In this document: piece after piece, positions 42,405 through 61,437 of the stretch | Layout: each line of letters begins with the position of its first letter | How positions within the stretch are numbered: position 1 is the stretch's first letter | Translations under genes and position numbers: made by a program | Notes under the pieces: generated by a model | Databases searched by the model: none | What the model saw: the letters and a program-made list of their open reading frames with translations, nothing else | Told to the model about the DNA's origin: nothing | NCBI GenBank assembly: GCA_035433545.1 | Contig: DAORVC010000004.1 | Location: forward strand, 1 to 61,437 | Direction of reading: 5' to 3' | DNA length: 61,437 nucleotides | From: Actinotalea sp. | GTDB taxonomy: Bacteria; Actinomycetota; Actinomycetes; Actinomycetales; Cellulomonadaceae

Positions 42405-43207
42405 CGCGTCTCCACCCCACGCGAGGGCACGTCCGCCCGGCCGTGCAGGGCCTCGCGGACCTGCGTGATCGCGGCGAAGTAGCCGGCGTCCTCGCGCAGC
42501 CCGTCCGCCCGCTCCGAGCCGCGCCCCAGTCCGACCTCGACGACCTCGGTGATCCGGCCCGGCCGTGCCGACATGACGACCACCCGGTCGGAGAGGAACA
42601 CGGCCTCGGGGATGGAGTGCGTCACGAAGACGACGGCCGCCCTGGTCTCGGCGCAGATCCGGACGAGCTCGTTCTGCAGCCGCTCGCGGGTCATCTCGTC
42701 GAGCGCGCCGAACGGCTCGTCCATGAGCAGCAGGCTCGGCTCCTCGGCGATCGCGCGGGCGATCGCGACCCGCTGCTGCATGCCACCGGACAGCTGGTCG
42801 GGGTACGAGCCGGCGACGTCGCCGAGCCCGACCAGCTCGAGCAGGTGCTCCGCTCGCTCGCGCCGCTCCAGCTTGCCCGTGCCGTGCAGGGCGAGCGGCA
42901 GCTCGACGTTGGCCCGCACCGTGCGCCACGGCAGCAGCCCCGCCTGCTGGAACGCGATCCCGTAGTCGTGGGCGAGGCGGGCCTGCTCCGCGCTGCGCCC
43001 GAACACCGCGACCTGGCCCGTGGTGGGCTGGTCGAGGTCCGCCACGACGCGCAGCAGGGTGCTCTTGCCGCAGCCAGACGGGCCGATGAGCGAGACGAAC
43101 TCGCCCGCGGCGACCTGCAGGCTGACGTCGTCCAGCGCCGTCACCGCCGCCGGCCCCCGGCCGAACACCCGGCTGACCCCGACGACGCCCACGGCCACGG
43201 CGCTCAT
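42401..43207 (-). CDS. ABC transporter ATP-binding protein (SsuB/TauB-like)
   Basis: [29 protein letters not shown]. Confidence 0.93.
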
Positions 43208-44076
43208 GCGACGGCCTCCGCGCGGCGGTAGCGACCGAGCGGCACACCGAGCAGGCCCACGAGCCCGGCGACCACGAGGCCGAGCAGCACCGCCCCGAAG
43301 AGGGGCGCCCAGGGCTTGGCCGGGTCGCTGCTCGCGAAGCTGGCGAACTCCAGGATCATCCGGCCCACTCCTCCCGGGAGGCCCGTCGACACCTCCGCGA
43401 CGACGGTGCCCACCACGACGTTGGCCGCTGCGAGCCGCAGTGCCGGCAGCAGGTAGGGCACGCTCGCCGGCAGCCGCAGCCGCACGAGGGTGGTCCACCA
43501 GCCCGCGCCATAGGCGACCATGAGGTCGCGGTGGATCGCATCGGGCGACTGCAGCCCGCGCAGGGTGCCGACGGCGACCGGGAAGAACGCCAGGTAGGAC
43601 GCGATGACCACGACGGACATCCAGCCCTGCCACTCGAACGAGCCGAGCTCGAGCGTGCTCCCCCACCCCCGCACGAGCGGCGCGAGCGCGATGAGCGGGA
43701 CCGTCTGGCTCAGCACCACCAGGGGCAGCACGGCCTGCTCGACGATGCGGAACCGCGCCATCGCGACCGCGTACGCGAGCCCGACCGCGACGCCCAGCAC
43801 CCAGCTGAGCAGGGCGATCCCGAGGCTGAACGCCCCGGCCTGGAGCACCGCGACGGCCAGCACCGGGGCGCCCGGCGCCGCGGTGAGCGGGTCGCCGAGC
43901 CGGGCCACCATCTCCCAGACGTGCGGCATGGCGAGGTCGGTGGTCCGGGGCGCCAGGCGCAGCTCGCCGAGGCTCCAGCCCTCCTCCGGCCCGAGCAGCT
44001 TGTAGAGCTCCCAGGCGGCGGCGACCCCCGCCAGCGCGGCCAGGCCCAGCAGGGTGCCCCGCAGCCGCGCGCTCAT
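43204..44076 (-). CDS. ABC transporter permease
   Basis: SQTVPLIALAP, FFPVAV, LPASVPYL, VVAE. ATGA overlaps at both ends. Confidence 0.9.
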   Translation of the reverse strand: MSARLRGTLLGLAALAGVAAAWELYKLLGPEEGWSLGELRLAPRTTDLAMPHVWEMVARLGDPLTAAPGAPVLAVAVLQAGAFSLGIALLSWVLGVAVGLAYAVAMARFRIVEQAVLPLVVLSQTVPLIALAPLVRGWGSTLELGSFEWQGWMSVVVIASYLAFFPVAVGTLRGLQSPDAIHRDLMVAYGAGWWTTLVRLRLPASVPYLLPALRLAAANVVVGTVVAEVSTGLPGGVGRMILEFASFASSDPAKPWAPLFGAVLLGLVVAGLVGLLGVPLGRYRRAEAVA

Positions 44077-45104
44077 GCCGTCGCCACGACGTGGTCGCGG
44101 AGCGCGGGGATGACCCGCTCGCCGTACATCCGCAGGGTCTCCTCCTTGTTGTCGTGCTGGAGGTACCCGGCGAACTGGGTGACGCCGAGGTCGCGCAGGG
44201 CGGCCAGCTTCTCGACGTGCTCGCGCGGGCTGCCGAGCAGGCAGAACCGCTCGACGATCTCGTCTGGCACGAAGGCGGCGTGGCTGTTGCCCGCCCTGCC
44301 GTGCTCGTTGTAGTCGTAGCCCTGGCGCCCGGCGACGTAGTCGGTCAGCGCCTGCGGCACGTCCGAGCCGGAGCCGTACTTGGTGACGATGTCGGCGACG
44401 TGGTTGCCCACCATGCCGCCGAACCAGCGGCACTGCTCGCGCATGTGGGCACGCTCGGCCGGCGCGTCGCCGTTGCCGACGTACATCGGGGCCGCGACGC
44501 AGAACTTGATCGACATCGGGTCGCGGCCGGCGGCCTCGGCAGCGTCCCGGACCGCCTTGATCATCCAGGCGGCGATGTCTAGGTCCGCGAGCTGGAGGAT
44601 GAACCCGTCACCCACCTCCCCCGTCAGGCGCAGGGCCAGGGGGCCGTAGGCCGCGACCCACACGTCCATGACCGAGCCATGGCTCCACGGGAACCGGACG
44701 GTCGTGCCGTTGACGTCCACCGCCCGGCTGTTCGCCAGCTCACGGATGACGTGCACGGACTCGCGCAGCGTGGCCAGGTTGCTCGGCCTGCCGCCCAGCG
44801 TGCGCACCGCGGAGTCCCCCCTGCCGATCCCGCAGATGGTCCGGTTGCCGTACATCTCGTTGAGCGTGGCGAACAGCGAGGCGATGACCGTCCAGTCCCG
44901 CGTGGCGGGGTTGGTGACCATCGGCCCGACGACGACGCGCCGGGTCGCCGCGAGGATCGCGGAGTAGATGACGAAGGGCTCCTGCCAGAGCAGGTGCGAG
45001 TCGAACGTCCACACGTGGCTGAACCCGTGGGTCTCCGCCTGACGCGCGAGCTCGACCGTCCGCGAGGCGGGCGGGTTGGTCTGCAGGACGACGCCGAAGT
45101 CCAT
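44073..45104 (-). CDS. Mer-like LLM-class putative F420-dependent oxidoreductase (TIGR03842-like)
   Basis: MDFGVVLQ, WTFDSHLLWQEP, GPMVTNP, GIGRGDS, AAYGP. Motifs resemble methylene-H4MPT reductase-type LLMs. Confidence 0.85.
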   Translation of the reverse strand: MDFGVVLQTNPPASRTVELARQAETHGFSHVWTFDSHLLWQEPFVIYSAILAATRRVVVGPMVTNPATRDWTVIASLFATLNEMYGNRTICGIGRGDSAVRTLGGRPSNLATLRESVHVIRELANSRAVDVNGTTVRFPWSHGSVMDVWVAAYGPLALRLTGEVGDGFILQLADLDIAAWMIKAVRDAAEAAGRDPMSIKFCVAAPMYVGNGDAPAERAHMREQCRWFGGMVGNHVADIVTKYGSGSDVPQALTDYVAGRQGYDYNEHGRAGNSHAAFVPDEIVERFCLLGSPREHVEKLAALRDLGVTQFAGYLQHDNKEETLRMYGERVIPALRDHVVATA

Positions 45105-45153
45105 CGTGGCTCCCATCGGTCCGGTGGGGGCGGGGGTACCGCCCACCAGGGGG

Positions 45154-46572
45154 TCAGGCCGGGTACTGGCTCTCGCCGCGGTGCAGGTACTGCCCGTGCC
45201 CGGCGCGACCGTGGAAGGCCCCGTCGTCGATCACCACGGAACCGCGGGAGAGCACGGTGTCGACGTGACCGTCGACCTCGAACCCCTCCCACGACGAGTG
45301 GTCGATCGCCATGTGGTGGGTCTTGTCGAACCCGATGGACGTGTGGCCCGCCGGGTCGTAGACGACGATGTCGGCATCGGCGCCGGGGGCGATGACGCCC
45401 TTGCGCCCGGCGAGGCCGAACATCCGCGCCGGCGTGGTCGAGCACAGCTCGACCCAGCGTTCGAGGGTGATCCTGCCCGTGACGACGCCCTGGTACACGA
45501 GGTCCATCCGGTGCTCGACGGTGCCCATCCCGTTGGGGATCTTGCGGAAGTCGCCCAGCCCCAGCTCCTTCTGGCCGACCTGGCAGAACGGGCAGTGGTC
45601 GGTCGCGACCATCTGCAGGTCGTTGGTCCGCAGGGCCCGCCAGATGTGGTCCTGATGCTCGTCCGCCGTGGACCGCAGCGGCGGCGAGCACACGTACTTG
45701 GCGCCCTCGAACCCGGGCGCGCCCAGGTGCTCCTCGAGGCCCAGGTACATGTACTGCGGGCACGTCTCGGCGAAGACGCGCTGGCCGCGGTCGCGCGCCG
45801 CGGCGATCTGGTCGACCGCCTGCTTGGCCGAGACGTGCACGATGTACAGCGGTGAGCCGGCGACGTCGGCGAGCATGATCGCCCGGTGCGTGGCCTCCTC
45901 CTCCATCTGCCACACGCGCGCGACCCCGTGGTAGTACGGGTCCGTCTTGCCGGCCGCGACCAGCTGCTCGGCCAGGACGTCGATCGCCGGTCCGTTCTCC
46001 GCGTGCATCATCGGCAGCAGACCGTGCCCGGCCGCCACCTGGAACGCGCGGAGCAGCTCGCCGTCGCCGGAGTAGAACACCCCGGGGTAGGCCATGAACA
46101 TCTTGAAGCTCGTCACGCCCTGGCTCGGCAGCCAGGTCAGAGCCTTGAGCGAGTCCTCGTCGACGCCGCCGACGATCTGGTGGAAGCCGTAGTCGACCGC
46201 GCAGGTGCCGGCCGCCTTGGCGTGCCAGGCCTCCAGCCCGTCCTGGATCCGCGTCCCGGCGGTCTGCACGGCGAAGTCGATGATCGCCGTGGTGCCGCCC
46301 CAGGCCGCGGCCCTTGTCCCGGTCTCGAAGGTGTCCGACGCGTGCGTGCCGCCGAACGGCAGCTCCATGTGCGTGTGCGCGTCGATCCCGCCAGGGATGA
46401 CGTACTTCCCGGTCGCGTCGATGACGCGGTCGACGTTCGCCGCGACGTCGAAGCCGAGGAGCGACGAGCCCGGGGCGAGGACGGCGACGATCGTCTCGCC
46501 GTCGACGAGCACGTCCGCCGCCCCGCGTCCGGTCGCGTTGACGACGGTGCCGCCGCTGATGAGGGTCTTCAC
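45154..46572 (-). CDS. hydA: Dihydropyrimidinase
   Basis: PGGIDAHTH, GTTAIIDF, SFKMFMAY (carbamylated Lys), HAENG, YIVHVS, ETCPQY, TDHCPF. Confidence 0.93.
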   Translation of the reverse strand: MKTLISGGTVVNATGRGAADVLVDGETIVAVLAPGSSLLGFDVAANVDRVIDATGKYVIPGGIDAHTHMELPFGGTHASDTFETGTRAAAWGGTTAIIDFAVQTAGTRIQDGLEAWHAKAAGTCAVDYGFHQIVGGVDEDSLKALTWLPSQGVTSFKMFMAYPGVFYSGDGELLRAFQVAAGHGLLPMMHAENGPAIDVLAEQLVAAGKTDPYYHGVARVWQMEEEATHRAIMLADVAGSPLYIVHVSAKQAVDQIAAARDRGQRVFAETCPQYMYLGLEEHLGAPGFEGAKYVCSPPLRSTADEHQDHIWRALRTNDLQMVATDHCPFCQVGQKELGLGDFRKIPNGMGTVEHRMDLVYQGVVTGRITLERWVELCSTTPARMFGLAGRKGVIAPGADADIVVYDPAGHTSIGFDKTHHMAIDHSSWEGFEVDGHVDTVLSRGSVVIDDGAFHGRAGHGQYLHRGESQYPA

Positions 46573-46597
46573 GGGTGTCCTTCGGGGGTGCGGGCGG

Positions 46598-47446
46598 TCA
46601 CGGGGCGACGATGGGGCCGTAGGCCTCCGGGCGGCGGTCGCGGAAGAACTGCCATCGCTCGCGGACCTCGCGGATCGCGCCCAGGTCGACGTCGCGCAGG
46701 ATGTAGCCCGCCTCGGTCGAGCTCGCCACCTCCCCCACGACGTTGCCGTCCGGACCGACGACGTACGAGGAGCCGTAGAACGCGACCGCATCGTCGCCGT
46801 ACTCGTTGGTCTCGGCGCCCACCCGGTTGTTCGCCGCGACGAAGTACCCGTTGGCGATGGCCGCGGCGGGCTGCTCGATCTCCCAGAGCCGGTTGGAGAT
46901 GCCCGGCGCCGTCGCGTTGGGGTTGAAGACGATCTCCGCGCCGGCCAGGCCGAGGACGCGCCACCCCTCGGGGAAGTGCCGGTCGTAGCAGATGTTGACG
47001 CCGATGGTGCCGACGGCCGTCTCGAAGACCGGGTAGCCGAGGTTGCCCGGGCGGAAGTAGAACTTCTCCCAGAACTTCGGCAGGTGCGGGATGTGGTGCT
47101 TGCGGTACTTGCCGAGGTAGGAGCCGTCGGCGTCGACGACCGCAGCGGTGTTGTAGAGCACCCCCGGCTGGTCCTCCTCGTAGACCGGCAGCACCATGAC
47201 CATGCCCAGCTCCTTGGCGAGCGCGGCGAACCGGTCGACCGTCGGCCCGGGCACCGACTCGGCGTAGGCGTAGTAGGCGGGGTCCTGGGTGATCCCGAAG
47301 TACGGCCCGTAGAAGAGCTCCTGGAACGCGATGACCTGGGCACCCTCGGCCGCCGCCGCGCGCGCGTACCCCTCGTGGCGGACGATCATCGACTCCTTGT
47401 CGCCCGTCCACGGGGTCTGGGTCAGGGCCACGCGAACGACGCTCAT
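46598..47446 (-). CDS. Nitrilase-superfamily beta-ureidopropionase (N-carbamoyl-beta-alanine amidohydrolase)
   Basis: QELF, YRKHHIP, FWEKFYF, ICYDRHFPE (Glu-Lys-Cys triad), ANNRVG, FYGSS. Confidence 0.88.
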   Translation of the reverse strand: MSVVRVALTQTPWTGDKESMIVRHEGYARAAAAEGAQVIAFQELFYGPYFGITQDPAYYAYAESVPGPTVDRFAALAKELGMVMVLPVYEEDQPGVLYNTAAVVDADGSYLGKYRKHHIPHLPKFWEKFYFRPGNLGYPVFETAVGTIGVNICYDRHFPEGWRVLGLAGAEIVFNPNATAPGISNRLWEIEQPAAAIANGYFVAANNRVGAETNEYGDDAVAFYGSSYVVGPDGNVVGEVASSTEAGYILRDVDLGAIREVRERWQFFRDRRPEAYGPIVAP

Positions 47447-47539
47447 GGATTCCTCCGGCTCGGGGTGCGTCGCGGGGGGCCAGGGCCGCGGTGAGCGGCC
47501 GGGGCCGCCTCGCCATGTTTGTTATCCTGACGCCTAAAC

Positions 47540-47587
47540 ATTTCTCCGGGGTTTCCCTGGGGCCGGCCGCCGTTTCCCGGGCGTAAA
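47540..47587 (-). promoter_or_regulatory. Putative GlnR boxes upstream of the pyrimidine operon
   Basis: Minus strand: TTTAC-n6-GAAAC (47587-47572) and GAAAC-n6-GAAAT (47555-47540) in a locally AT-rich patch. Confidence 0.65.
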
Positions 47588-47673
47588 CACTGGGACACGG
47601 ACCGTGACCTCGACGGCGTCCGCACCTGCGCGCCGGGGCCCGGAGCGCGTCGCCGGTGACGAGGAGGTGGGCC

Positions 47674-49017
47674 GTGCCGCAGGTGCTCCGCGTCGTGGCC
47701 GACGCGGTCGAGGACCGCAGCCCCCGTGGCATCGCCGCGGCGATCTCCCGCCTGGTGCTCGACGGCGCCCTGCCCGCCGGCACCCGTCTGCCCACCGTCC
47801 GCGAGCTGGGTGCCGCGCTGGGGGTGAGCCCCGCCACCGTGAGCCACGCGTTCCGCGCCCTGGCCGGGGTGGGGCTCGTCGCGTCGCGCGGCCGGGCCGG
47901 GACCCGCGTGCTGGGCACGGGCACGACGTGGCTGCCGCCGCGCTACCGCGACCTCGCCGGCCCGCACGGCGGCTTCCGCCTCGACCTCTCCACCGGCACC
48001 CCCGACCCGCTGCTGCTGCCCGACCTCGCACCCGTGCTCGCCGGGCTCGGCTCGCGCGCCCTGACCACGAGCTACCTCGACACCCCCGTGCTGCCGGGTC
48101 TCGAGCAGCACCTGCGCTCGTCGTGGCCCTACCCGGTCGAGGCGGTGACCGTCGTCGACGGCGCGTTCGATGCGATGGCACGCTCGCTCGAGCTGCTCGT
48201 GCGGTTCGGCGACCGCGTGGTCGTCGAGAACCCGTGCTTCCCGCCCCTGCTCGACCTGCTCGACCAGCTCGGCGCCGAGCGCGTCCCGGTGCCGACGGAC
48301 GAGGCAGGTCTGGTGCCTGCGGGCTTCGCGGCGGCCCTGGCCACCGCACCGGCGGCCGTGGTGCTCCAGCCCCGCGCGCACAACCCGACCGGGGTCTCGC
48401 TGACGCCCGGCCGTGCCGCCGAGCTCGCCGGCGCGCTGCGCGGTCACCGGGATGCCGAGCGCACCGTCGTCGTCGAGGACGACCACTCCGGCGCGGTCTC
48501 GACCGCCGCCGACGTGAGCCTCGGCACCCACGTGCCCGAGCGTGTGCTCCATGTGCGCTCGTTCTCGAAGTCGCACGGGCCGGACCTGCGGATCGCCGCG
48601 CTCGGGGGCCCGGCGGCGCTCGTCGACCGGATCGTCGCGCGGCGCATGCTCGGGCCGGGCTGGACCAGCCGGATGCTCCAGCAGGTGCTGCTCGAGCTGC
48701 TCACCGGGAACGACGGGATCCTGGCCGTGACCGAGGCACGCCGGGCCTACCACGCGCGGCAGCGCGAGATGGTCAGGGCACTGCACGCCCACGGCGCGGC
48801 GGCGTCACCCGGTGACGGCGTGAACCTGTGGTTGCCGGTCGCCTCCGAGAGCGAGGCGATCGTCCACCTCGCCGCGGCCGGGGTGAGGGTCGCACCCGGG
48901 AGGCCGTTCGGCTCCGGGCCCGCCGACGGTCCGGAGCACGTGCGGGTGACGGTCGGGCTGGTGCGCGGCGACGTCGACGCCCTGGGTCGTCTGCTCGCCG
49001 CTGCCGCGGCCGCCTGA
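47674..49017 (+). CDS. MocR/GabR family regulator (GntR HTH plus PLP aminotransferase-like domain)
   Basis: LPTVRELGAALGVSPATV HTH, HNPTG, EDD, SFSKS (PLP Lys). AGGAGG RBS before GTG 47674. Confidence 0.9.
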   Translation: MPQVLRVVADAVEDRSPRGIAAAISRLVLDGALPAGTRLPTVRELGAALGVSPATVSHAFRALAGVGLVASRGRAGTRVLGTGTTWLPPRYRDLAGPHGGFRLDLSTGTPDPLLLPDLAPVLAGLGSRALTTSYLDTPVLPGLEQHLRSSWPYPVEAVTVVDGAFDAMARSLELLVRFGDRVVVENPCFPPLLDLLDQLGAERVPVPTDEAGLVPAGFAAALATAPAAVVLQPRAHNPTGVSLTPGRAAELAGALRGHRDAERTVVVEDDHSGAVSTAADVSLGTHVPERVLHVRSFSKSHGPDLRIAALGGPAALVDRIVARRMLGPGWTSRMLQQVLLELLTGNDGILAVTEARRAYHARQREMVRALHAHGAAASPGDGVNLWLPVASESEAIVHLAAAGVRVAPGRPFGSGPADGPEHVRVTVGLVRGDVDALGRLLAAAAAA

Positions 49018-49045
49018 GGCCGTCACCACGGGCCCGGGCCGGGCT

Positions 49046-49164
49046 TAGGCTGGGCTGCGAGGACCCCGGGCACGCGCTGGCCCGGTCGCTCGGCCCGGAT
49101 CTGGGCCGTGGTCCCCGGTCGACAGCTGGCGACCACACCTCCCCCGTGATCCCAGGAGACCTCC
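49046..49164 (+). promoter_or_regulatory. Promoter (-10 TAGGCT at 49046-49051) and structured ~107-nt leader of the deazaflavin-uptake operon
   Basis: Three consecutive hairpins and a pyrimidine tract complementary to the AGGAG RBS. Function inferred. Confidence 0.45.
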
Positions 49165-50193
49165 GTGCGCACTCGCCCCCTCGTCCGTCCCGGCCCTGCC
49201 CTGGTGGCCGCCGCCGCGGGGTGCGCGCTCCTCGCCGGGTGCGCCTCGGCGACCGGCACCTCGACGTCGGCCGCCCCGAGCCGCCCCCCGGCCGGCGACA
49301 CCGCGGCCACCGAGGCCTACCCGCTGACGCTCGACAACTGCGGCGTCGAGGTCACCCTCACCGGGGCCCCCGAGCGCATCGTGGCGATCAAGTCCAGTGC
49401 CATCGAGATGCTGCTCGCGCTGGGCGTCGGCGACCGCATCGTCGGCACCGGCTTCCCCGACGGCCCGCCGCCGGCCGAGCTCGCGGACGCCGCCGCAGAG
49501 CTCCCCCAGCTCTCGGACAAGGTCCCGGCCGCCGAGGTGGTGCTCGCGGCAGAGCCCGACCTCGTCGTGGCGGGCTGGGAGTCCAACCTCACCGCCGAGG
49601 GCGCCGGGGACCGCGCCACCTTCGCCGACCTCGGCGTGGCCACCTACGTCGCGCCGTCGGCGTGCAAGGACCCGGCCTACCAGCCCGACCGGCTGACGTT
49701 CGAGGAGGTCTTCGCCGAGATCACGCAGATGGGCGACGTGCTGGGGGTGCCGGACGCCGCTGCCGACCTCGTCGAGGCCCAGCGGGCCGACCTCGCCGCG
49801 CTGGAGCCGGACGGGCGGGGCCTCACCGCGCTGTGGTACTCCTCGGGCGACGACATCCCCTACGTCGGGGCCGGCATCGGCGCACCGCAGATGATCCTCG
49901 ACGCCGTGGGCGTGACGAACATCGCCGCCGGTCTCGCCGACACCTGGAGCCCGTTCAGCTGGGAGCAGGTGGCGCAGGACGACCCGGACCTCATCGTCCT
50001 GGTCGACGCCGCCTGGAACAGCGCGGAGCAGAAGCGCGAGCGGCTGGCGGCGAACCCCGCGACGGCCCACCTCACCGCTGTGCTCGAGGGGCGCTACCTC
50101 GTGGTGCCGTTCGCGGCGACGGAGGCGGGCGTGCGCAACGTCGAGGCGGCCGTCGACCTCGCCGGGCAGGTCGCGGCGCTCGACCTCGGATGA
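49165..50193 (+). CDS. Putative F420-0/FO ABC transporter substrate-binding lipoprotein (TIGR03868-like)
   Basis: Lipobox LAGC, YPLTLDNCG, GWESN, YVAPSAC, PYVGAGIGAP, PFAATEAGVR. Fe-siderophore/B12-type SBP in an operon with cofD. Confidence 0.8.
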   Translation: MRTRPLVRPGPALVAAAAGCALLAGCASATGTSTSAAPSRPPAGDTAATEAYPLTLDNCGVEVTLTGAPERIVAIKSSAIEMLLALGVGDRIVGTGFPDGPPPAELADAAAELPQLSDKVPAAEVVLAAEPDLVVAGWESNLTAEGAGDRATFADLGVATYVAPSACKDPAYQPDRLTFEEVFAEITQMGDVLGVPDAAADLVEAQRADLAALEPDGRGLTALWYSSGDDIPYVGAGIGAPQMILDAVGVTNIAAGLADTWSPFSWEQVAQDDPDLIVLVDAAWNSAEQKRERLAANPATAHLTAVLEGRYLVVPFAATEAGVRNVEAAVDLAGQVAALDLG

Positions 50194-51314
50194 CCGGCAG
50201 CCAGCCGACCGGGACACCCGACGCCGGTACGCCAGGTCGAGGCCCCCTCCGCACCGGCCGCCTCCGCACCGGCCCCCTCCGCACCGGGCCCGCCGTCGTC
50301 GGCGCCGCGGTGCTGCTGCTCGCCTCCGTGACGGCCGCGGTGACGGTCGGTCCGGCCGGGATCGCACCGGCGGACGTCTGGGGCTCGATCGGCCACCACC
50401 TCGCCGCGCTGCTCGCGCCCGGTGGGGCCGGGGCCGAGCCGCCCCTCGGCCCGCTGCTCGACGGCGTCGTGTGGGACCTGCGCCTGCCGCGCGTGCTCAC
50501 GGCCGGGGCCGTCGGCGCGGGGCTCGCGGTCGCCGGCACGGTCATGCAGTCGCTGACGCGCAACCCGCTCGCGGACCCGTACCTGCTCGGGCTCTCCTCT
50601 GGCGCGTCGCTCGGCGCGGTCGCCGTGCTCGTGCTGGGCGCCGGCGTGCTGCTGCCGGTCGCGGCGTTCGCCGGGGCGCTGGCGGCGCTCGCTGCCGCGC
50701 TGGGGCTCGCCGGGTCGCTCGGCACACTGACGCCCGCGCGCACCGTGCTCGCGGGGCTGGCGGTGGCCCAGCTCGCCGCAGCGGGGACCTCCTTCATCAT
50801 CTTCTGGTCGGCGACCGGGGACTCCTACCGCGAGATCCTCGCGTGGCTCATGGGCTCGCTCGCCGGGGCGGACTGGCCGGCCGTCGCCATCGCCGGCGGC
50901 GCGGTGCTCGTGCTCGGCGTCGGGCTGACCGCCAGCGCGCGCACGCTCGACGCGTTCACCTTCGGGGACACCGCTGCCGCGGCGCTGGGCGTGGACGTGG
51001 CGCGCACGCGATGGCTGCTGCTCACGGTGGTCGCGCTGCTCACCGGCGCGCTGGTCGCGGTGAGCGGGTCGATCGGGTTCGTCGGGCTCATCGTGCCGCA
51101 CGCCGTGCGCCTCGTGGCGGGCGGCGCCCACCGCCGGCTGCTGCCGCTCGTCGCGCTCGTCGGCGCGACGTTCCTCGTCTGGGCGGACACCGCGGCGCGC
51201 ACGCTCTTCGAGCCGCGCGAGCTGCCCGTCGGCATCGTCACGGCGTTCCTCGGTGCGCCCGTCTTCGCGGCGATCCTCTGGCGGCGGCGCAGCGCGAGCG
51301 AGGACCTCGCATGA
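50190..51314 (+). CDS. Putative F420-0/FO ABC transporter permease (FecCD family)
   Basis: LRLPRV, RNPLADPYLLGLSSGA, SGSIGFVGLIVPH, ELPVG. Confidence 0.85.
   Translation: MTGSQPTGTPDAGTPGRGPLRTGRLRTGPLRTGPAVVGAAVLLLASVTAAVTVGPAGIAPADVWGSIGHHLAALLAPGGAGAEPPLGPLLDGVVWDLRLPRVLTAGAVGAGLAVAGTVMQSLTRNPLADPYLLGLSSGASLGAVAVLVLGAGVLLPVAAFAGALAALAAALGLAGSLGTLTPARTVLAGLAVAQLAAAGTSFIIFWSATGDSYREILAWLMGSLAGADWPAVAIAGGAVLVLGVGLTASARTLDAFTFGDTAAAALGVDVARTRWLLLTVVALLTGALVAVSGSIGFVGLIVPHAVRLVAGGAHRRLLPLVALVGATFLVWADTAARTLFEPRELPVGIVTAFLGAPVFAAILWRRRSASEDLA
50241..50285 (+). repeat. 15-bp tandem repeat x3 (GPLRT/GRLRT/GPLRT)
   Basis: GGCCCCCTCCGCACC, GGCCGCCTCCGCACC, GGCCCCCTCCGCACC, in frame in the permease N-terminus. 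Confidence 0.85.
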
Positions 51315-51333
51315 GCCCGGACGGCGGTCGACC

Positions 51334-52176
51334 GTGACCCTGGACCTCGACCACCTGACGTGGTCCGTCGACGGCCAACGCATCCTCGACGCCGTGGACG
51401 TCGCGGCGCCCGCCGGTGCGCTCACGGGGCTGCTGGGTCCCAACGGCGCGGGCAAGTCCACCCTGCTGCGGCTGGTCAGCGGGGTGCTCGCACCCGGCGC
51501 CGGCCGCGTGACCCTGGGCGGGCAGGACCTGCTGGCGCTCCCCCGGCGGGCGCGGGCCCGCCGCGTCGCCCTCGTCGAGCAGGAGTCGACCGTGCCGGCG
51601 TCCGTGACGGTGCGCGAGGCCGTGCTGCTGGGTCGCACCCCGCACGCCTCACACTGGGGCGGGCTCACCGCGCGCGACCACGCGGTGGCCGACGCCGCCC
51701 TGGCCGAGGTCGATGCCACCGCACTGGCGCACCGGCTGCTCGTCACCCTGTCGGGCGGCGAGCGTCAGCGCGTGCACCTGGCCCGCGCGCTGGCCCAGGA
51801 GCCGGCGCTCCTGCTGCTCGACGAGCCGACCAACCACCTGGACGTGCACGCCCAGCTCGACACCCTCGCCGTCGTGCGCCGGCTGACCGCGCGCGGGGTG
51901 ACGGTGCTCGCGGCGCTGCACGACCTCAACCTCGCCGCGACGGCGTGCGACCACCTCGTGCTGCTCGACGCCGGGCGCGTGGTCGCGGCAGGGTCGGTGC
52001 ACGACGTGCTGCGGCCGGAGGTGCTCGAACCCGTCTACCGGGTGCGGTGCACCGTGCTGCTCCACCCGCGGACGGGGCGCCCCGTGCTGACCTTCGATCC
52101 CGCGGACGGGCCGCCACCCGGCGGCACCGCCGACGTCACCCCTGACGTCCCCGACACCCGGAGGCCCCCACCATGA
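51334..52176 (+). CDS. Putative F420-0/FO ABC transporter ATP-binding protein
   Basis: GPNGAGKST, LSGGERQR, DEPTNHLD, LHDLNLA. ATGA overlap with cofD. Confidence 0.88.
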   Translation: MTLDLDHLTWSVDGQRILDAVDVAAPAGALTGLLGPNGAGKSTLLRLVSGVLAPGAGRVTLGGQDLLALPRRARARRVALVEQESTVPASVTVREAVLLGRTPHASHWGGLTARDHAVADAALAEVDATALAHRLLVTLSGGERQRVHLARALAQEPALLLLDEPTNHLDVHAQLDTLAVVRRLTARGVTVLAALHDLNLAATACDHLVLLDAGRVVAAGSVHDVLRPEVLEPVYRVRCTVLLHPRTGRPVLTFDPADGPPPGGTADVTPDVPDTRRPPP

Positions 52177-53165
52177 CCCAGCGCATCGTCCTGCTCGCCG
52201 GCGGCGTCGGCGGGGCGCAGTTCACCCTCGGACTGCGCGAGCACCTCGCCGCGACCGGGGTCGACGCCGAGGTCACCGTCGTGGTCAACACCGGCGACGA
52301 CCTGTGGCTCGACGGCCTGCGGGTCTGCCCCGACCTGGACACGGTGATGTACACGCTCGGCGGGGTGATCGGCGAGCAGGGCTGGGGCCGCGCGGGCGAG
52401 AGCACCCGGGTCGCCGCGGAGCTGCACGCCTACGGGCTCGGCTGGGACTGGTTCACGCTCGGCGACCTCGACCTGGGGACGCACGTGGCGCGCACCGAGC
52501 TGCTGCGCCAGGGGCGCACGCTCACCCAGGTCACCGCGCGGCTGTGCGAGCGCTGGGCACCCGGCGTGCGCCTGCTGCCGATGTCCGACCAGCCCGTCGA
52601 GACGCACGTGGAGGTCGAGCTCGACGGGCGGGTGCGACTCCTCCACTTCGAGGAGTGGTGGGTGCGGCTGCGGGCGGCCGTCCCGGCGCGACGGTTCGTC
52701 CAGGTGGGCCTCGGGGACGCCGCGCCCGCGCCCGAGGTGCTGGCAGCGCTCGCGCACGCCGACGTCGTGCTGCTGCCGCCCTCCAACCCCGTCGTCTCGA
52801 TCGGGACGATCCTGGGCCTGGCGCCGCTCCGCGACGCCCTGCTGGCGACACCGGCCCCCGTCGTCGGGGTGTCCCCGATCATCGGCGGGGCGCCCGTGCG
52901 CGGGATGGCCGACGCGTGCCTCGCGGCGATCGGCGTGCCGACGACGGCGGAGGCCGTCGCCCTGCACTACGGCGCGCGGTCCGCCGGCGGGCTGCTCGAC
53001 GGCTGGCTGGTCGACACCGCCGACGCGGACGCGCTGCCCGGGCTGACCGCGGCGGGGATCGCGGCGCGTGCGCTGCCCCTGCTCATGACCGACGAGGCGT
53101 CGACGTCTGCCATCGTCGCGGCGGCGCTCGACCTCGCGTCCGCGCGGGCCCGTGCGGCTCAGTAG
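52173..53165 (+). CDS. cofD: 2-phospho-L-lactate/PEP transferase (F420 biosynthesis), CofD/FbiA
   Basis: LAGGVGGA, VNTGDD, CPDLDTVMYTL, WFTLGDLD, HFEEWWV, PSNPVVSI, GMAD. Confidence 0.94.
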   Translation: MTQRIVLLAGGVGGAQFTLGLREHLAATGVDAEVTVVVNTGDDLWLDGLRVCPDLDTVMYTLGGVIGEQGWGRAGESTRVAAELHAYGLGWDWFTLGDLDLGTHVARTELLRQGRTLTQVTARLCERWAPGVRLLPMSDQPVETHVEVELDGRVRLLHFEEWWVRLRAAVPARRFVQVGLGDAAPAPEVLAALAHADVVLLPPSNPVVSIGTILGLAPLRDALLATPAPVVGVSPIIGGAPVRGMADACLAAIGVPTTAEAVALHYGARSAGGLLDGWLVDTADADALPGLTAAGIAARALPLLMTDEASTSAIVAAALDLASARARAAQ

Positions 53166-53198
53166 GGTCGTCACCGACCCCGAGGCAGGAGGACCACC

Positions 53199-54005
53199 GT
53201 GCTGGCGCTGACGACCGCCCTGCGCTCCGTCACGGGCGCGTACCGGCGCGGCAACCAGGACGCGGTGGGCTGCTCCGACGACTACGCGTTCGTCGCAGAC
53301 GGCGTGGGCGGCAACGCGGGCGGCGACGTCGCGTCGTGGACGGTGACGCACCGTGCGATGTCGAGCCTCGCCACGCTGCGCCGACCCCTGGGCGAGGCCC
53401 GGCTGCGCGCCGTGCTGGCCGACGCCAACGCGGAGCTCGGGCTGCGGGTGGGCCGGGAGCCGGCGCTGACGGGGATGGCGACCACCTTCACGGGCCTGTT
53501 CTGCGGCACCCGCTCGGTCCGGGTGGCCCACATCGGCGACTCGCGCGCGCACCTGCTCCGCGGCGGGCGGCTGCGCCGCGTCACCGACGACCACTCGCTG
53601 GTCCAGATGCTCGTCGACTCCGGCCACCTCACCGCCGAGCAGGCCGCCCACCACCCGCAGCGCAACATCATCACGCGCTCGCTGTCCGGCCGGCCGGTGG
53701 ACGCCGGCGGCATCGAGGTGCGCACCGTGCGCGCGGCCCCGGGCGACCGGTGGCTGCTGGCGAGCGACGGCCTGACGGACTACGTGCCCCACCGCGACGT
53801 CGCGGAGCTGGTCGCGCGCGGCGGGCCGGAGGAGGCAGCAGACGCGCTCGTCTCCCGTGCGCTCGAGCTCGACGCACGCGACAACGTCAGCGTCCTGGTG
53901 TGCGACGTGGTCGAGGTGGGCGGTGGGCCCAGGCCACGGCCGTACCGCTGCGGCGGGTCCGCGGCCGCACCGGAGCTCGGCACGGTCATCGACCTGTCGC
54001 GCTGA
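53199..54005 (+). CDS. PP2C-family Ser/Thr phosphatase
   Basis: RRGNQD, VADGVGG, HIGDSR, DHSLV, RNIITRSL, SDGL, DNVS. Confidence 0.92.
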   Translation: MLALTTALRSVTGAYRRGNQDAVGCSDDYAFVADGVGGNAGGDVASWTVTHRAMSSLATLRRPLGEARLRAVLADANAELGLRVGREPALTGMATTFTGLFCGTRSVRVAHIGDSRAHLLRGGRLRRVTDDHSLVQMLVDSGHLTAEQAAHHPQRNIITRSLSGRPVDAGGIEVRTVRAAPGDRWLLASDGLTDYVPHRDVAELVARGGPEEAADALVSRALELDARDNVSVLVCDVVEVGGGPRPRPYRCGGSAAAPELGTVIDLSR

Positions 54006-54072
54006 GTCGCGCGCGGCCCCGACCCGCCGGGTTCGGCCGGGTTCGACGACGTCCGGCGCGACTCGGCAGCGG

Positions 54073-54732
54073 TCAGCGCCGGTCGAGGCGGCAGTAGACC
54101 GGCTCGCGGCGCAGCAGCGCTGCCGTCGCCCGGCCCACGCCGAGCCGCGCCGCCGCCCGCAGGTCGGCGGCCGTGTCGACGTCGCGCCGCAGCCCGGGCG
54201 GCACGTCGGGCAGTGCCGTGTGCCCGGCCGCCACGTGCGCGGCGAACGAGCCGGGGCCGAAGCGCGGCACCATCTCCCCCGTCAGCGCGGTGAGCAGCGT
54301 GGTGCCCGTGCCGTCTGCGTCGGGCACCACGGCGCGCGCGTGCCCAGCTGCCAGGACGAGGGCTGCGTCGAGGTCCGGGCCGACGAGGGCAGGCAGGTCG
54401 CCCAGCAGGAGGGCGATCGGCCCTGGTGCGGCGTCGGCGCGCGCCGCGGTGAGCGCCGCCGCGACGCCGGCGGCGAGCGCGGCGTTGAGGCCGCCCCCGG
54501 GATCGGCGAGCAGGCGCACGCCCGGGCGGGCCCCGAGCGCTTCGGCGACGCGCGGCTCACCCGTCACCACCACGACGAGGTCGACCTCGCGCGCCGCGAG
54601 GGCCGCGTGCACCGTGTCGAGCGCGAGCGCGAGCGCGAGGTCGGCGCGCGCGGGATCCGTGGCGGCCAGGTCGAGCCGCGTCTTGGCGTCCGCGAGCCGC
54701 TTGACGGGCACGACGACGGTCCAGCCGGTCAC
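54073..54732 (-). CDS. cofC: 2-phospho-L-lactate/PEP guanylyltransferase CofC/FbiD
   Basis: [46 protein letters not shown]. Confidence 0.93.
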
Positions 54733-55586
54733 CGGGTTCCCGCCGGCTCGCCGGCCGGGGCCGGGCCGGGCGCACCCGTCGTCGGCGCCATCGGTGCCAC
54801 CACCTCGTGCGCCGCGGCCCGGCCTGCGGCGAAACCCTCACGCCACGCCTCGGCCGCCCCGACCCGGAACAGGTCGTCAGCGGCCGCGCGCACCGCTGCG
54901 CGCGCACCGGTGCCGTCGTCGGCCGTGACGTGGTGGCCCAGGCCGCGCACCACGGCCACCGGTCGCCCCGCCGTCTTGCCCCGCACCAGCTCGCTCGCTG
55001 CGGCCACCTGGTCGGCGACGGCCGTGATCGTCGCGCTCATCGCGCGGCCGTGCGCGTCGAGCCCGCCGCGCAGGTCCGCCAGCACCGTGACCCCGGCGGC
55101 CCCGATGGCGATGTCCGTCAGCCCCTCGCGCCACGCGCGGCCCGCCGTGTCGGAGACCACCACGCCGAGCCGCAGCCCGAAGCGCGCGGCGAGCGCAGCC
55201 CGCAGCCCGCGCGCCGAGGCGTCGGGGTCCACCGGCAGCAGCAGCACCGTGCCCGCGGGGGTGTTGCTCGCGTCCACCCCGGCCGCGGCCATGACCAGGC
55301 CGAGCCGGTTCTCGACGATGCGCAGGGTGCCGCCCGGGTGCTCCCGGGTGGCGACCACGCGCACGGTCTCGTCGGTGATGGCCTGCTCGCGGTCGTCAGC
55401 TGCGACCACGCGACCCTCGGCCTTGGACACCACCTTGCTCGTCACGACCACGACGTCGCCGTCGGCCAGCGTCCCCGCGAGGGCGTCGCCGACCAGCCGC
55501 GCGAGGTCGTCACCGGGGCGGACCTCGCCGATCCCGTCGGGTGCCCAGACCTCGAGCCGGTCGGCCGGGGCCGCGCTCGCGCTCAC
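54729..55586 (-). CDS. cofE: Coenzyme F420-0:L-glutamate ligase CofE (ligase domain only)
   Basis: [60 protein letters not shown] overlaps at both ends. Confidence 0.92.
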
Positions 55587-56593
55587 CGGTGGAGCTTCGG
55601 CAGCACCTCGCGGCCGAACACCTCGAGCCACTGCGCCTGGTTGCGACCGACGTTGTGCAGGTAGACCCGGTCGAAGCCCAGGTCGACGTAGCGCTGCAGC
55701 TCGGCGCGGTGCACGTCCGGGTCGGCCGAGACGACCATCCGGCCCGCGAAGTCCTCCGGCCGCACCAGCTTGGCCATCTGCTCGAAGTCGAACGGGGAGC
55801 GGATGTCGCCCTTGGGGAACTTCATCCCGCCGTTGGGCCACTGCTCCATGGCGTTGGCCATCGCCTCCTCGTCGGTCTCTGCCCACGACAGGTGCACCTG
55901 GAGCAGCCGCGGCATCGTCGAGGGGTCCTTGCCCGCCTCGCGTGCGCCCTCGTCGAACTTGGCGAAGAGCCCGGCGATCTTCTCCAGGGGCGCGCCCACG
56001 GTGATGAGGCCGTCCGTGAGGCGACCGGCCCGCTTGGCCGTGACGGGACCGGCCGTGGCGACGTAGATCTCCGGCGGCACCTGCGGCATGGTCCACAGCC
56101 GGGTGGACTCGAGCTTGTAGAACGGCCCCGAGTGCTTGACGTCCTTGCCGGCGAGCGAGGCCGTGAAGAGCTTGGTGATGACGTCGATCGCCTCGAACAT
56201 GCGGTTGATCCGCTCGGGCGCCTCGGGCCAGTACGTGCCGAGGATGTGCTCGTTGAGCGCCTCGCCGGAGCCCAGGCCCAGCCAGTGCCGGCCCGGGTAC
56301 ATCGCGGCCAGCGTCGCCGAGGCCTGCGCGACCATCGCCGGGTGCCAGCGGAAGGTCGGCGCCGTGACCCCGGGGCCGATGTCACCGGACGTGCGCTCGC
56401 CGAGCGCCGCGAGGACGTTCCAGACGAACGCAGCCTCGCCCTGTGCGGGCACCCACGGCTGGAAGTGGTCGGCCGCCATGACACCGGAGAAGCCGTTCCG
56501 CTCTGCCAGCACCGCCAGCTCGAGGATCTCCAGCGGGGCGAACTGCTCCAGCGCCGCCGCGTACCCGACCGTCAGCCCTGCCACCACGACCAC
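55583..56593 (-). CDS. F420-dependent LLM oxidoreductase of the G6PDH (FGD)-like family (TIGR03557-like)
   Basis: [30 protein letters not shown]. Translationally coupled to cofE-cofC. Confidence 0.88.
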
Positions 56594-56664
56594 CTCTTCC
56601 GCCGCCCCGACGGGCGACCTCGTCCGACCCTAACCGGCGCCGTGTGACGACCGCGTGTCGCGGC

Positions 56665-59220
56665 CTACTCGTAGGAGACGGCCGCGAGCACGTCCAGCCG
56701 CGCGGCGCGCACCGCCGGCCACACGGCCGCGAGCACCCCGACGACGACGGCGAGCGCGACGAGCACGCCGAGCTGGTCCCACGGGACCTCCAGCGTGCTG
56801 AGCCCCTCGTCCTGGAACACCGTCGGCAGGGTCGCCGCGAGGCCGGCGCCGATCGCGACACCCAGCACGGTGCCGAACACCGCGGTGAGCACCGACTCGA
56901 TGGTCACCACGGTGGCGAGCTGGAGCCGGCCCAGCCCGACCGCGCGCAGCAGGCCGATCTCGCGTGTGCGCTCGGCGATCGACAGGGCGAGGGTGTTGAC
57001 GATGCCCAGCACCGCGATGACGATCGACAGGCCCAGCAGCGCGTAGAGGATGACGAGCACCTGGCCGACCTGGTCGGACAGCGCGTCGGCGAACTCCTCG
57101 TTGTCCATCACCGAGACGACGATGAAGGGGCTCGCGGCGTCCGTGAGGTCGGACCGCAGGGCGGCGAGGTCCGCGCCGTCGCGGGCCACGACGAAGACCG
57201 TGTCGATGGTGGTCTGCGCCGGGGCGACCACCTGCTCGAAGACGTCCTGCGGCAGCACCACCGGCACGCCGACGGCGCGGGAGTCGATGACCGCCCCGAT
57301 GGTGACCTGCTCGTCACCGGCACCGGAGCGCAGGGTCAGCCGGTCCCCGACCGCCCAGCCCTCCTCGTCCGCCGTCGTGCGCTGCACGGCGACGTCGCCG
57401 TCGGCGAGGGAGCCGAGGTCGCCGTCGGTGACCGTGACGTCGAGCGCCGCGTCGAAGACGCCCGGGTCCACGCCGATGACCGCCGTGGTGGCGCCGTCGA
57501 CCGTGAGCACCCCGACCCGCAGCGCGTCGGCGCGGGCCACGTCCGGCAGGTCGGCGACCTGCGTGACGAGCTCCGCCGGCACGTCGCGCGTCGCGGACTG
57601 CAGCAGGTAGTCGGCGGTCGACTCGTTCTCGACGATCGAGCGCGTGGAGGCCTGGGTGGACGCCGCCAGGACGGACGCCGCACCGACCAGCGCCATGCCG
57701 ATCATCAGCGCGCTGGCCGTGCTCGCGGTGCGCCGCGGGTTGCGTGTGACGTTGCCGCGGGCCAGGCCGCCCAGCGGCCTCAGTGCGGCGACGGCCGGTG
57801 CGGCGAGCACGCGCAGCGCGCCGGGGACGACGGTGGGCGCGAGCAGCAGGACGCCGAGGACGACGCCCGCCGCCCCGGCGCCGAGCACGGGGCCCGGGCC
57901 GTCGACCCAGCCGGCGGTGGCGGCGACGACGGCCGCGACGCCGCCGACGGTCAGCACGCCGCCGAGCAGCGCGCGCAGCGCCGAGCCCCGGTCGTGGACC
58001 ACCACCTCGTCGCGCATGGCCTCGACGGGGGGCGTCAGCGCAGCCCGCCGCGCCGGGATCGCCGCAGCGACGAGGCTCACCGTCGTGCCGATCGCCACCG
58101 AGACCGCGACGGTGAACCCGTCGAGCGGGATGGTGCCGGACAGCTCCATGCCCATGGCGGCCAGCACCCCGCGCAGGATCGCGACGAGACCCACCCCCGC
58201 ACCCACGCCGAGCGCCGAGCCGAGCACGCCGACCACGGCGGCCTGGACGAGGATCGAGACGAGCACCTGGAGCGGGGAGGCACCGATCGCGCGGAGCATG
58301 GCGAACTCACGCTGACGCTGGCGGACGGTCATCTGGAAGGTGTTGGCGATGATGAACGCACCGACGAAGAGCGAGATCGCCGCGAAGACGAGCAGGAACG
58401 TCGAGATGAAGCCGAGCACCTGGTCGATCTGCTCCTGGGCCTCGTCGCGCAGCGTGGTGCCGGTCTCGGCCTCGACGTCGGCGCCGCCCACCGCGGCCTC
58501 GAGCCGGTCGACGAGCTCGGCCTCCGAGACGCCGTCTGCCGCGTAGACCGCGATCGAGGCGACCTCGCCGTCTGGGGCGAAGATCTCGGTGGCCGTGTCG
58601 ACGTCGAGGAAGATGATCGTCGCCCCGGCGGTCGGGGCACCGAAGGAGACCTCGCCGACGACGTCGACCTGGGTCACGGCGCCGCCCAGCACCACGGTCG
58701 TGGTGTCGCCCAGCGCGAGCCCCGAGCGCTCCAGCGTGCCGCTGACCAGCGCGATCTCGTCCGGTCCGCCCGGGGCACGGCCGTCGACCACCTCGGCGCC
58801 GGGGTCGCGCGGGTCGAGCCCGATGGCGAAGCTCGGCGCACCGCCGCCGCCCGCGACGACCGCCGTGCCGTCCGCCCCGACGAGCACCACGGGGCCGGAG
58901 ATGTCGGGGATCGCGGCGGTCACGCCGTCGACGTCGGACGCCTCGTCGGCGAGGCTCAGCGGGACCAGCGCCCGCGTGGAGGTGCCGACGGTCGCCGCGC
59001 CACCGCCGCCGGCCAGGGCGTCCTCGACGGGCTCGGCCGGGCCGCGCAGGTAGGCGTCGCCCACCAGCGAGGACGCGACGATGTCGCTGAAGGTGCTCGA
59101 GAGCATCGTGCGCAGCGCGAAGGTGCCGGCCACGAAGGCGACGCCGAGCAGCACGGCCACGACGGACATGACGAACCGCCCGAGGTGGCTGCGGATGCCC
59201 CGCAGGGCGACCCGGGTCAT
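56665..59220 (-). CDS. FtsX-like ABC transporter permease (duplicated FtsX domains)
   Basis: IANTFQMTVRQRQREFAMLRAIGA, NPRRT, NTLALSIAERTREIGLLRAVG. Confidence 0.92.
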   Translation of the reverse strand: MTRVALRGIRSHLGRFVMSVVAVLLGVAFVAGTFALRTMLSSTFSDIVASSLVGDAYLRGPAEPVEDALAGGGGAATVGTSTRALVPLSLADEASDVDGVTAAIPDISGPVVLVGADGTAVVAGGGGAPSFAIGLDPRDPGAEVVDGRAPGGPDEIALVSGTLERSGLALGDTTTVVLGGAVTQVDVVGEVSFGAPTAGATIIFLDVDTATEIFAPDGEVASIAVYAADGVSEAELVDRLEAAVGGADVEAETGTTLRDEAQEQIDQVLGFISTFLLVFAAISLFVGAFIIANTFQMTVRQRQREFAMLRAIGASPLQVLVSILVQAAVVGVLGSALGVGAGVGLVAILRGVLAAMGMELSGTIPLDGFTVAVSVAIGTTVSLVAAAIPARRAALTPPVEAMRDEVVVHDRGSALRALLGGVLTVGGVAAVVAATAGWVDGPGPVLGAGAAGVVLGVLLLAPTVVPGALRVLAAPAVAALRPLGGLARGNVTRNPRRTASTASALMIGMALVGAASVLAASTQASTRSIVENESTADYLLQSATRDVPAELVTQVADLPDVARADALRVGVLTVDGATTAVIGVDPGVFDAALDVTVTDGDLGSLADGDVAVQRTTADEEGWAVGDRLTLRSGAGDEQVTIGAVIDSRAVGVPVVLPQDVFEQVVAPAQTTIDTVFVVARDGADLAALRSDLTDAASPFIVVSVMDNEEFADALSDQVGQVLVILYALLGLSIVIAVLGIVNTLALSIAERTREIGLLRAVGLGRLQLATVVTIESVLTAVFGTVLGVAIGAGLAATLPTVFQDEGLSTLEVPWDQLGVLVALAVVVGVLAAVWPAVRAARLDVLAAVSYE

Positions 59221-60812: not shown

Positions 60813-60915
60813 CGCAACATCCCTCCGCTCGCTGGTGCTACCGCCCGGTCGGGACGGATCGGGATCGAGGCGATGTGAGCCTCGCCCCCTCGACAAGGGG
60901 CGCCCGGACGACGCG

Positions 60916-60944
60916 TGTCGGTGGTCGATCGTACACTCGTTCGA
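60916..60944 (+). promoter_or_regulatory. DNA-damage promoter: RecA-NDp (PafBC-type) motif overlapped by a LexA-type SOS box
   Basis: TGTCGGTG (60916-60923), 8 nt, TACACT (60932-60937). TCGTAC-ACTC-GTTCGA (60929-60944) has one mismatch to TCGAAC-N4-GTTCGA. Confidence 0.75.
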
Positions 60945-60959
60945 AGAGGAGATGGGGTG

Positions 60960-61437
60960 ATGCGAGTGGCCGAGCAGGGGTGGCAGGCGACGGTCGAGCG
61001 GCTGCGGGCGGAGGTCGATGCCGTGCTCGCGCTGGACGTCGCCGCCCTCGAGGCCGCCGACGCCGGCGCGCTGCGTCGGTCGCTGCGCCGGGCGACCGAC
61101 CAGCTCCAGGCCGTCGCCGCGCGGCTGCTCGCGCGCGTGGAGGACGACGGCCGCTGGTCCGCCGGCGGCACGCGGACCTTCGGCGAGTGGGTCGCGCGGC
61201 GCGAGCTGACGTCCGTCGGCGCGGCCCGTCGCGAGGCGGAGCTGGGTCGCGCGCTCGGCACCGACCTCCCGGCGACGGCCCGAGCCGTCGCGGCCGGTGA
61301 GCTCACCCTCGAGCATGCCCAGGTGCTCGCCCGGCTCGCCCCGACGTCGCAGGCCCGGCGTGCCGCGCTCGCCGGGACCGGGCCCGCCGCCGGCACGGTC
61401 GCGGACGAGCAGGGACTGGTCCGCACCGCAACCGGGA
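60960..61437 (+). CDS. DUF222 domain protein (13E12-repeat family, usually with C-terminal HNH), runs off the window
   Basis: MRVAEQGW...GRWSAGGTRTFGEWVARR...LPATARAVAAGELTLEHAQVL resembles DUF222 N-termini. GAGGAG RBS. HNH part not visible. Confidence 0.75.
   Translation, partial: MRVAEQGWQATVERLRAEVDAVLALDVAALEAADAGALRRSLRRATDQLQAVAARLLARVEDDGRWSAGGTRTFGEWVARRELTSVGAARREAELGRALGTDLPATARAVAAGELTLEHAQVLARLAPTSQARRAALAGTGPAAGTVADEQGLVRTATG

Follow-up and report, generated by a model that had tools for sequence, protein, structure and literature searches.

Gene content and layout of the locus

We analysed a stretch of DNA of 61,437 nt from Actinotalea sp. (assembly GCA_035433545.1, contig DAORVC010000004.1), hereafter the window, which is one complete contig of an assembly of 2.79 Mb (131 contigs, 88% complete). 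It contains a cluster of genes for a three-component ATP-binding cassette (ABC) importer, for the CofD, CofC and CofE enzymes of cofactor F420 synthesis, and for a luciferase-like monooxygenase (LLM), which we interpret as a probable module for the salvage of deazaflavins (Table 1).

Table 1. Features of the importer-cof locus; positions are those of the window, and scores are given with the cut-off of the respective family model.
Feature	Position	Strand	Score or basis
-10-like box TAnnnT of the importer operon	49046-49051	+	sequence
Leader RNA, three-way junction (P1 49061-65/49110-14, P2 49066-85, P3 ~49091-49108)	49061-49114	+	covariation
Downstream hairpin (extension 49108-13 with 49131-36 would exclude P1)	49108-49136	+	
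Substrate-binding lipoprotein (SBP), TIGR03868 clade, class III, FecB/BtuF fold	49165-50193	+	456 bits, cut-off 392
FecCD-type permease, TIGR03869	50190-51314	+	495 bits, cut-off 437
ABC ATPase, TIGR03873-like	51334-52176	+	369.6 bits, 2.8 under the cut-off of 372.4
cofD (CofD/FbiA)	52173-53165	+	TIGR01819, 336 bits, cut-off 257
PP2C-type phosphatase (local insertion, outside the conserved module)	53199-54005	+	profile match
cofC (CofC/FbiD)	54073-54732	-	TIGR03552, 139 bits, cut-off 105
cofE, single-domain glutamyl ligase without the FbiB reductase domain	54729-55586	-	TIGR01916, 226 bits, cut-off 181
LLM, Fgd-like	55583-56593	-	TIGR03557, 286 bits, cut-off 210

In a profile search the second-best family for the ATPase reached only 254 bits, and its likeliest start, judging from the match to the hidden Markov model (HMM) and the sequence, is the GTG at 51334. 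The stop codon of the ATPase gene overlaps the start of cofD (ATGA), hence the coupling of the importer to cofD, which had been proposed in a sequence-only reading of this DNA, is upheld. The SBP and permease genes overlap likewise, and there is no direct overlap between the permease and ATPase genes, separated by a gap of ~19 nt. An 8-codon frame (51311-51337) shares bases with the stop of the permease gene (ATGA) as well as with the likely start of the ATPase gene (GTGA), and may be a relay of translational coupling or a chance occurrence. On the opposite strand the LLM gene, cofE and cofC are linked by GTGA overlaps. The two operons converge at 54005/54073, if the PP2C gene is included. The latter gene, situated 33 nt past cofD and provided with its own ribosome-binding site, was found neither in 80 related loci nor in 20 further loci, and is thus considered a local insertion; the sequence-only reading had given the importer genes, cofD and the LLM-cofE-cofC operon with their correct extent, but had missed this gene between cofD and cofC.

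The closest named SBPs come from Actinotalea and Cellulomonas (70-78% identity), and a close structural match is PDB 4MLZ from Jonesia denitrificans (E 2e-91; TM 0.97). A single-sequence fold was poor (predicted local distance difference test, pLDDT, 38) and the alignment-based model was good (96); the latter provides no ligand.

FO synthase and the use of F420

FO synthase is absent from the window, as the sequence-only reading held, and a search of the whole genome for fbiC, cofG and cofH agrees with this: in the 88%-complete assembly there were no matches to the cofH and cofG models, and all seven radical-SAM matches belong to other families (MoaA, MiaB, HemW, PflA, LipA, NrdG and RlmN types). 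As the assembly is incomplete, we also considered genomes of the same genus, and observed cofH in none of 24, one of which is a single contig, and cofG in none of the five of high quality.

At the same time, the organism appears to use F420, since six of its ten LLMs pass the cut-offs of F420-type families. The LLM of the module has its best PDB match in 9HAV (E 2e-128), which we take to be Fgd of Thermomicrobium roseum, because its 54 chains match the 54 monomers of that enzyme described in PMC12750041.

Distribution of the importer and the cof genes

The distribution was assessed with five models in a single sample of 301 genomes from the order (the studied genome and 300 others of ≥95% completeness, drawn evenly by family). 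Importer carriers (n = 68) were the 66 genomes over the SBP cut-off and two more, scoring 353 and 376 bits, whose SBPs fall within the clade; two intermediate SBPs (~293 bits) were set apart. FO synthase was counted in 48 genomes over the cofH cut-off and in 35 with 190-300 bits, one of which was checked and is a full FbiC; six weak cofD matches and one weak cofC match were not counted.

All 68 carriers have cofE and only one has FO synthase, while the full pathway with FO synthase is present in 82 non-carriers. The carriers without FO synthase fall into two types, those with cofC, cofD and cofE (35 of the 68) and those with cofE only (32 of the 68); cofC and cofD are either both present or both absent in each of the 68. 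As Fisher's test on this tally (p = 5e-18) treats kin as independent, we do not rely on it. Together with the lack of cofH in the genus, these counts support the earlier proposal of deazaflavin auxotrophy with salvage. The placement of the importer in the clade of putative F420-0 transporters, mostly known from genomes that keep only cofE, is correct with respect to the SBP and the permease, both over their cut-offs, but a cofE-only host is not the rule, as cofC and cofD are retained by 36 of the 68 carriers, the studied genome included. Within the genus, the importer is present in 19 of 24 genomes and cofD in 14, with cofC and cofD missing from seven of the 19 carriers. Among 150 genomes drawn across the phylum, no further carrier was found over the cut-off.

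The linkage is also recurrent. Among 67 loci of the order, cofE was found within the fetched 17 kb in 55 and an Fgd-like LLM gene in 52; cofD is linked to the importer in 20 of the 35 genomes having it, and in 14 of the 67 loci, from several families, it directly follows the ATPase gene. The layout importer > [cofD] ... [cofC] < cofE < Fgd thus recurs across families.

CofC, CofD and the missing reductase

In alignments, CofD keeps the Asp residues equivalent to D45 and D57 of FbiA, whose roles are described in PMC8498797, and CofC, aligned to 6BWG, keeps the equivalents of K17, D116, T148, S166, D188 and D190 of FbiD. Therefore, FO that is present in the cytoplasm could be converted. According to PMC8764529, which describes the roles of the CofC/FbiD residues, the use of 3-phosphoglycerate (3-PG) is determined by the position of S162 in Mycetohabitans CofC. 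The Ser or Thr expected there in the 3-PG type is absent from the studied CofC, which has Gly at the position of FbiD G163; this suggests that it is of the phosphoenolpyruvate (PEP) or 2-phospholactate (2-PL) type rather than the 3-PG type. As, in addition, CofD resembles FbiA (E 1e-100), the PEP route with its dehydro-F420-0 intermediate is suggested.

The sole nitroreductase of the genome is RutE-like, and the best score for a dehydro-F420 reductase was 19.6 bits. This gap is order-wide, since in none of 80 genomes of the order, including owners of FO synthase, did a dehydro-F420 reductase score over the cut-off. One neighbouring gene found exclusively in genomes with cofC and cofD was considered as a reductase and ruled out, as it encodes an HhH-GPD protein.

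Eight carriers lacking FO synthase have, in place of the linked cofD and cofC, a cofD-cofC cassette that is deeply divergent and occurs among Isoptericola, Promicromonospora, Cellulosimicrobium and their relatives. It forms a long branch with support 100, its CofD is 41-45% identical to the local CofD, and no fbiC lies beside it. As the tree is unrooted, gain of the cassette is presumed; the replacement fits selection for FO conversion. In six of the eight loci the cassette adjoins a stand-alone convergent nitroreductase gene, whose product is a candidate FbiE-like dehydro-F420 reductase; no homologue of it was found in the studied genome.

Leader RNA of the importer operon

Upstream of the SBP gene lies a conserved RNA element preceded by the -10-like box. 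In 61 of 63 loci a TAnnnT box is located 20-3 nt 5' of the RNA motif, compared to one of 126 control windows further upstream, and a strict sigma-70 scan yielded no full promoter at the leader. Both hairpin loops of the element have U as the last base, before a paired G.

Nineteen upstream regions, selected for a short motif in their sequence, formed the initial set, and their alignment took no account of structure. In this set the two hairpins were 96.5% and 97.4% paired, and eight of 12 pairs showed two-sided changes. The first RNA model had 30 held-out matches of at least 20 bits, 29 of them on the sense strand and at most 600 nt from the start of the SBP gene, and one a mirror of the same element. 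The P1 stem of this model was rejected, being out of register and only 22.8% paired; it was excluded from the second model and assessed separately. On 42 rows, which were picked by the first model and hence are biased to the structure, 92% of cells were paired, ten of 12 pairs had two-sided changes, and none of 500 shuffles reached the score, while in slid controls pairing went down to 25-49%. The closing stem P1 covaries at one position (C-G 29, U-A 7 and U-G 2 of 42).

The second model located the leader at its usual place in 66 of the 85 importer loci (41 training rows and 25 held out), in both carrier types (25 of 35 with cofC and cofD, 24 of 32 with cofE only), and in none of 14 loci of the sister clade. 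It was not found in 19 of the 85 loci, including all six of one family, and there were 12 off-position matches of at most 25.5 bits. In a set of named importer loci, which overlaps the previous one, the leader is present in 76 of 80, including that of PHSC20C1. A search of 80 whole genomes gave no credible match outside importer loci, with 65 candidates scored per genome and four weak matches (E 0.03-0.04) among 74 non-carriers, the sensitivity of this search being low, as three of six carriers were recovered.

The region 47300-57000 had no matches in Rfam 15 at E≤1, and in particular none to the cobalamin or FMN riboswitches. Compared with shuffled sequences, the stability of the leader is ordinary (z of 0.3, 0.07, -0.6 and 0.2), thus the case rests on covariation and position. 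The downstream hairpin is a possible alternative fold of the leader in the folding models; constrained folding of the two folds gave -49.5 and -46.9 kcal/mol, and the ribosome-binding site (49154-59) has most of its bases paired in either fold, its access differing little. No terminator was found at the leader. Three metatranscriptome assemblies contained only short scattered pieces, which have no bearing on expression. The leader is a candidate deazaflavin-sensing element; binding of a protein is as possible as a riboswitch.

Substrate of the importer

The cofD-positive and cofE-only types interleave on the SBP tree, with six changes in 68 rows and nine in 88. Both types share approximately 65 near-invariant columns, including K76, S77, D99, W138, E139, S140, F316 and E320; in the EitA-like sister clade these residues are different. 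At position 282, readable in 87 of 88 rows, Ala is found in 41 of 48 cofD-positive carriers and Ser in 33 of 39 cofD-negative ones; the Jonesia SBP of 4MLZ is of the Ser type.

The carriers with cofE only lack CofC and CofD and thus cannot use FO, hence needing F420-0 or F420-n. FO is reported to cross membranes and F420-0 not, the charged phosphate tail blocking diffusion (PMC8498797, PMC12282290), and producers release FO (PMC12282290, PMC11104420). If so, a pump would be most needed for the charged species, and FO is a plausible cargo but not an implied one. This, together with the absence of cofC and cofD from nearly half of the carriers, the interleaving of the two types and the existence of importer-free genomes that keep cofC, cofD and cofE, goes against the sequence-only reading in one respect, that is, its claim that the presence of cofC and cofD implies FO as the cargo.

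The explanation that we consider best, and to which we would give about an even chance, is that the module serves deazaflavin salvage, the importer being predicted to take F420-0 and F420-n and probably also FO, while the neighbouring gene products finish and recharge the cofactor. Transcription would start just past the -10-like box, and the leader, as its covariation indicates, would fold into a three-way junction with a presumable role in control. The SBP, permease and ATPase would import deazaflavins originating from F420 producers, as suggested by the distribution of the genes, binding being putative. CofC and CofD, whose activity is predicted from their families and the retained catalytic residues, would put a PEP- or 2-PL-derived tail on FO supplied by the pump or by diffusion; if PEP is used, reduction of dehydro-F420-0 would be needed, and no reductase was found in the genome. 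CofE would then add glutamates, and the Fgd-like LLM, judging by its family, would supply reduced F420 to five or more other LLMs of the F420 type. A carrier lacking cofC and cofD would have to obtain F420-0 or F420-n, and carriers like the studied one could draw on either source. That some deazaflavin is salvaged via the module, be it in this way or according to either of the two alternatives discussed next, is very probable.

Several observations weigh against this explanation. The genome is only 88% complete, and neither an FbiB C-terminal reductase nor FbiE was found in it; other proteins of the SBP fold bind haem, siderophores and B12; related genomes are non-independent samples. In the sample, neither FO synthase nor the importer is present in 23 genomes that keep cofC, cofD and cofE and in 34 with cofE alone, and in two genomes of the same genus that possess the cof cluster no importer was detected. 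Finally, FbiC is present in five of 50 named carriers (Myceligenerans pegani and four Promicromonospora; the named set covers 50 of 80 loci), thus the importer is not confined to auxotrophs. In six examined genomes having both the importer and FO synthase, fbiC stands alone, apart from the other cof genes. In the 57 genomes with late cof genes and without FO synthase and the importer, no recurring importer was observed beside the cof genes, and hence other uptake routes or other roles of cofE exist.

It is conceivable, with a probability that is modest but should not be neglected, that the importer takes the charged species only (F420-0 and F420-n), while FO coming from diffusion or F420 breakdown is salvaged by CofC and CofD independently of the pump, cofD being in the operon for co-regulation. 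This agrees with the cofE-only carriers, with the 23 importer-free genomes, with the barrier that the phosphate tail poses to diffusion, with the location of the leader between an upstream cofD and the SBP gene in three loci, and with experiments in yeast, which converts added FO via CofC and CofD without an added importer (PMC10949242), FO being supplied at 50-200 uM (PMC10949242, PMC8859854). However, the repeated placement of cofD immediately after the ATPase gene, with the overlap seen in the studied locus, argues against it. The opposite possibility, which follows the sequence-only reading and seems to us rather improbable, is that the importer is specialised for FO in genomes with cofC and cofD, with Ser in place of Ala282 as the mark of F420-0 binders. 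The contrast between Ala and Ser described above, the near-invariant D281 and W284 flanking this position, and the independent pairs, 2.7 of six in the same direction and 0.1 in the opposite one, are in its favour. But the kinship-corrected sign test is not significant (p = 0.25) for what is the best of 491 tests, among 20 added genomes Ser occurs in only four of eight cofD-negative ones, and the SBP tree has no separate FO clade. The Ala282/Ser difference may still mark a shift of specificity between SBPs.

That the transporter imports a siderophore, haem, a corrinoid or riboflavin, the cof genes adjoining it by synteny and FO being made by an unrecognised enzyme or one encoded by a gene missing from the assembly, is improbable. 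The fold and the sister clade of iron, haem and B12 binders, as well as the incompleteness of the genome, would be compatible with it. It is opposed, however, by the presence of cofE in every carrier with linkage across several families, the near exclusion of the importer and FO synthase, the genus-wide lack of cofH, which includes the single-contig genome, the presence of riboflavin synthase in the studied genome, and a leader that matches neither the cobalamin nor the FMN riboswitch. We assign the smallest probability, a very low one, to cofC and cofD being remnants left after the loss of fbiC, with the importer and cofE alone being of importance. Such decay could explain why the two genes are missing from many carriers, even within the genus, and why no reductase was found, but the cofC and cofD frames are intact, the catalytic residues are kept, and eight carriers have the divergent replacement cassette.

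Flanking genes

The importer adjoins an operon of the pyrimidine-degradation type (43204-49017), with a nitrilase-family gene, dihydropyrimidinase (TIGR02033), an F420-type LLM (TIGR03842) and ABC genes; it is likely a consumer of F420 next to the supply. It is accompanied by a divergent MocR regulator gene, and a MocR gene precedes the SBP gene in 17 of the 67 order loci. Towards the end of the contig there is a NUDIX-like open reading frame (ORF) on the minus strand ending at 60321, and the contig ends within an ORF (60915-61437) whose product resembles a DUF222/HNH-type protein.

Significance and relation to known systems

The module is conserved and its family was named earlier; this analysis adds the leader RNA, the division of auxotrophs into two types, the replacement cassette and the lack of a recognisable reductase. 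We found no report on an F420 or FO importer or the ligand of this importer, on FO auxotrophy in the order, or on a deazaflavin riboswitch, in searches of freely accessible papers; the genome tables of Ney 2017 and PMC8498797 and catalogues of RNA motifs may also bear on these points. If the salvage reading is true, about a fifth of the sampled genomes of the order (67 of 301) run F420 enzymes on scavenged cofactor, and partial cof pathways are to be read differently. An importer would also benefit hosts for F420 biocatalysis, which at present are given FO at the concentrations mentioned above. The question is accessible to experiment: both FO and F420 fluoresce, there is an apo structure of a family member (4MLZ), and carriers are available in culture, such as Actinotalea subterranea and Agromyces ramosus, both negative for cofG. 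A more far-reaching view, which we offer tentatively and regard as possible but doubtful, is that the leader and the cassette are, respectively, the first deazaflavin riboswitch and the first importer of FO and F420, that F420 is a cross-fed vitamin for much of the order, and that one residue tunes the choice between FO and F420-0 as lineages lose and regain cofC and cofD.

Release of FO has been reported from Mycetohabitans to Rhizopus (PMC11104420) and into the medium by Streptomyces venezuelae (PMC12282290), and FO has been proposed as a shared "vitamin"; the available parts of these reports describe no bacterial recipient or importer.

In the canonical F420 pathway (FbiC, FbiD/CofC, FbiA/CofD, and FbiB or CofE with FbiE) we recognise the CofC, CofD, CofE and Fgd-like enzymes of the studied locus with their catalytic residues, whereas FO synthase and a recognisable dehydro-F420 reductase have no counterpart here. 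The naming of TIGR03868, TIGR03869 and TIGR03873 as a "putative F420-0 transporter" reportedly goes back to Selengut and Haft (2010) and the TIGRFAM text, and the founding genomes are said to be mostly cofE-only, which was the basis of the guess of the ligand and not of the HMM. The studied cassette, whose ligand is putative, shares with this family the three-gene clade, to which the Jonesia protein of 4MLZ and the PHSC20C1 members belong, and the linkage to cofE and an Fgd-type gene; it differs in the coupling of cofD to the ATPase gene, the retention of cofC, as in about half of the carriers, and the conserved RNA leader. Vitamin-salvage operons headed by riboswitches include BtuFCD with the cobalamin riboswitch and riboflavin importers with the FMN riboswitch. 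In contrast to those, the leader described here matches no Rfam family and is a candidate for sensing, but the arrangement is the same: in an auxotroph, a structured 5' leader precedes the genes of an importer and of finishing enzymes.

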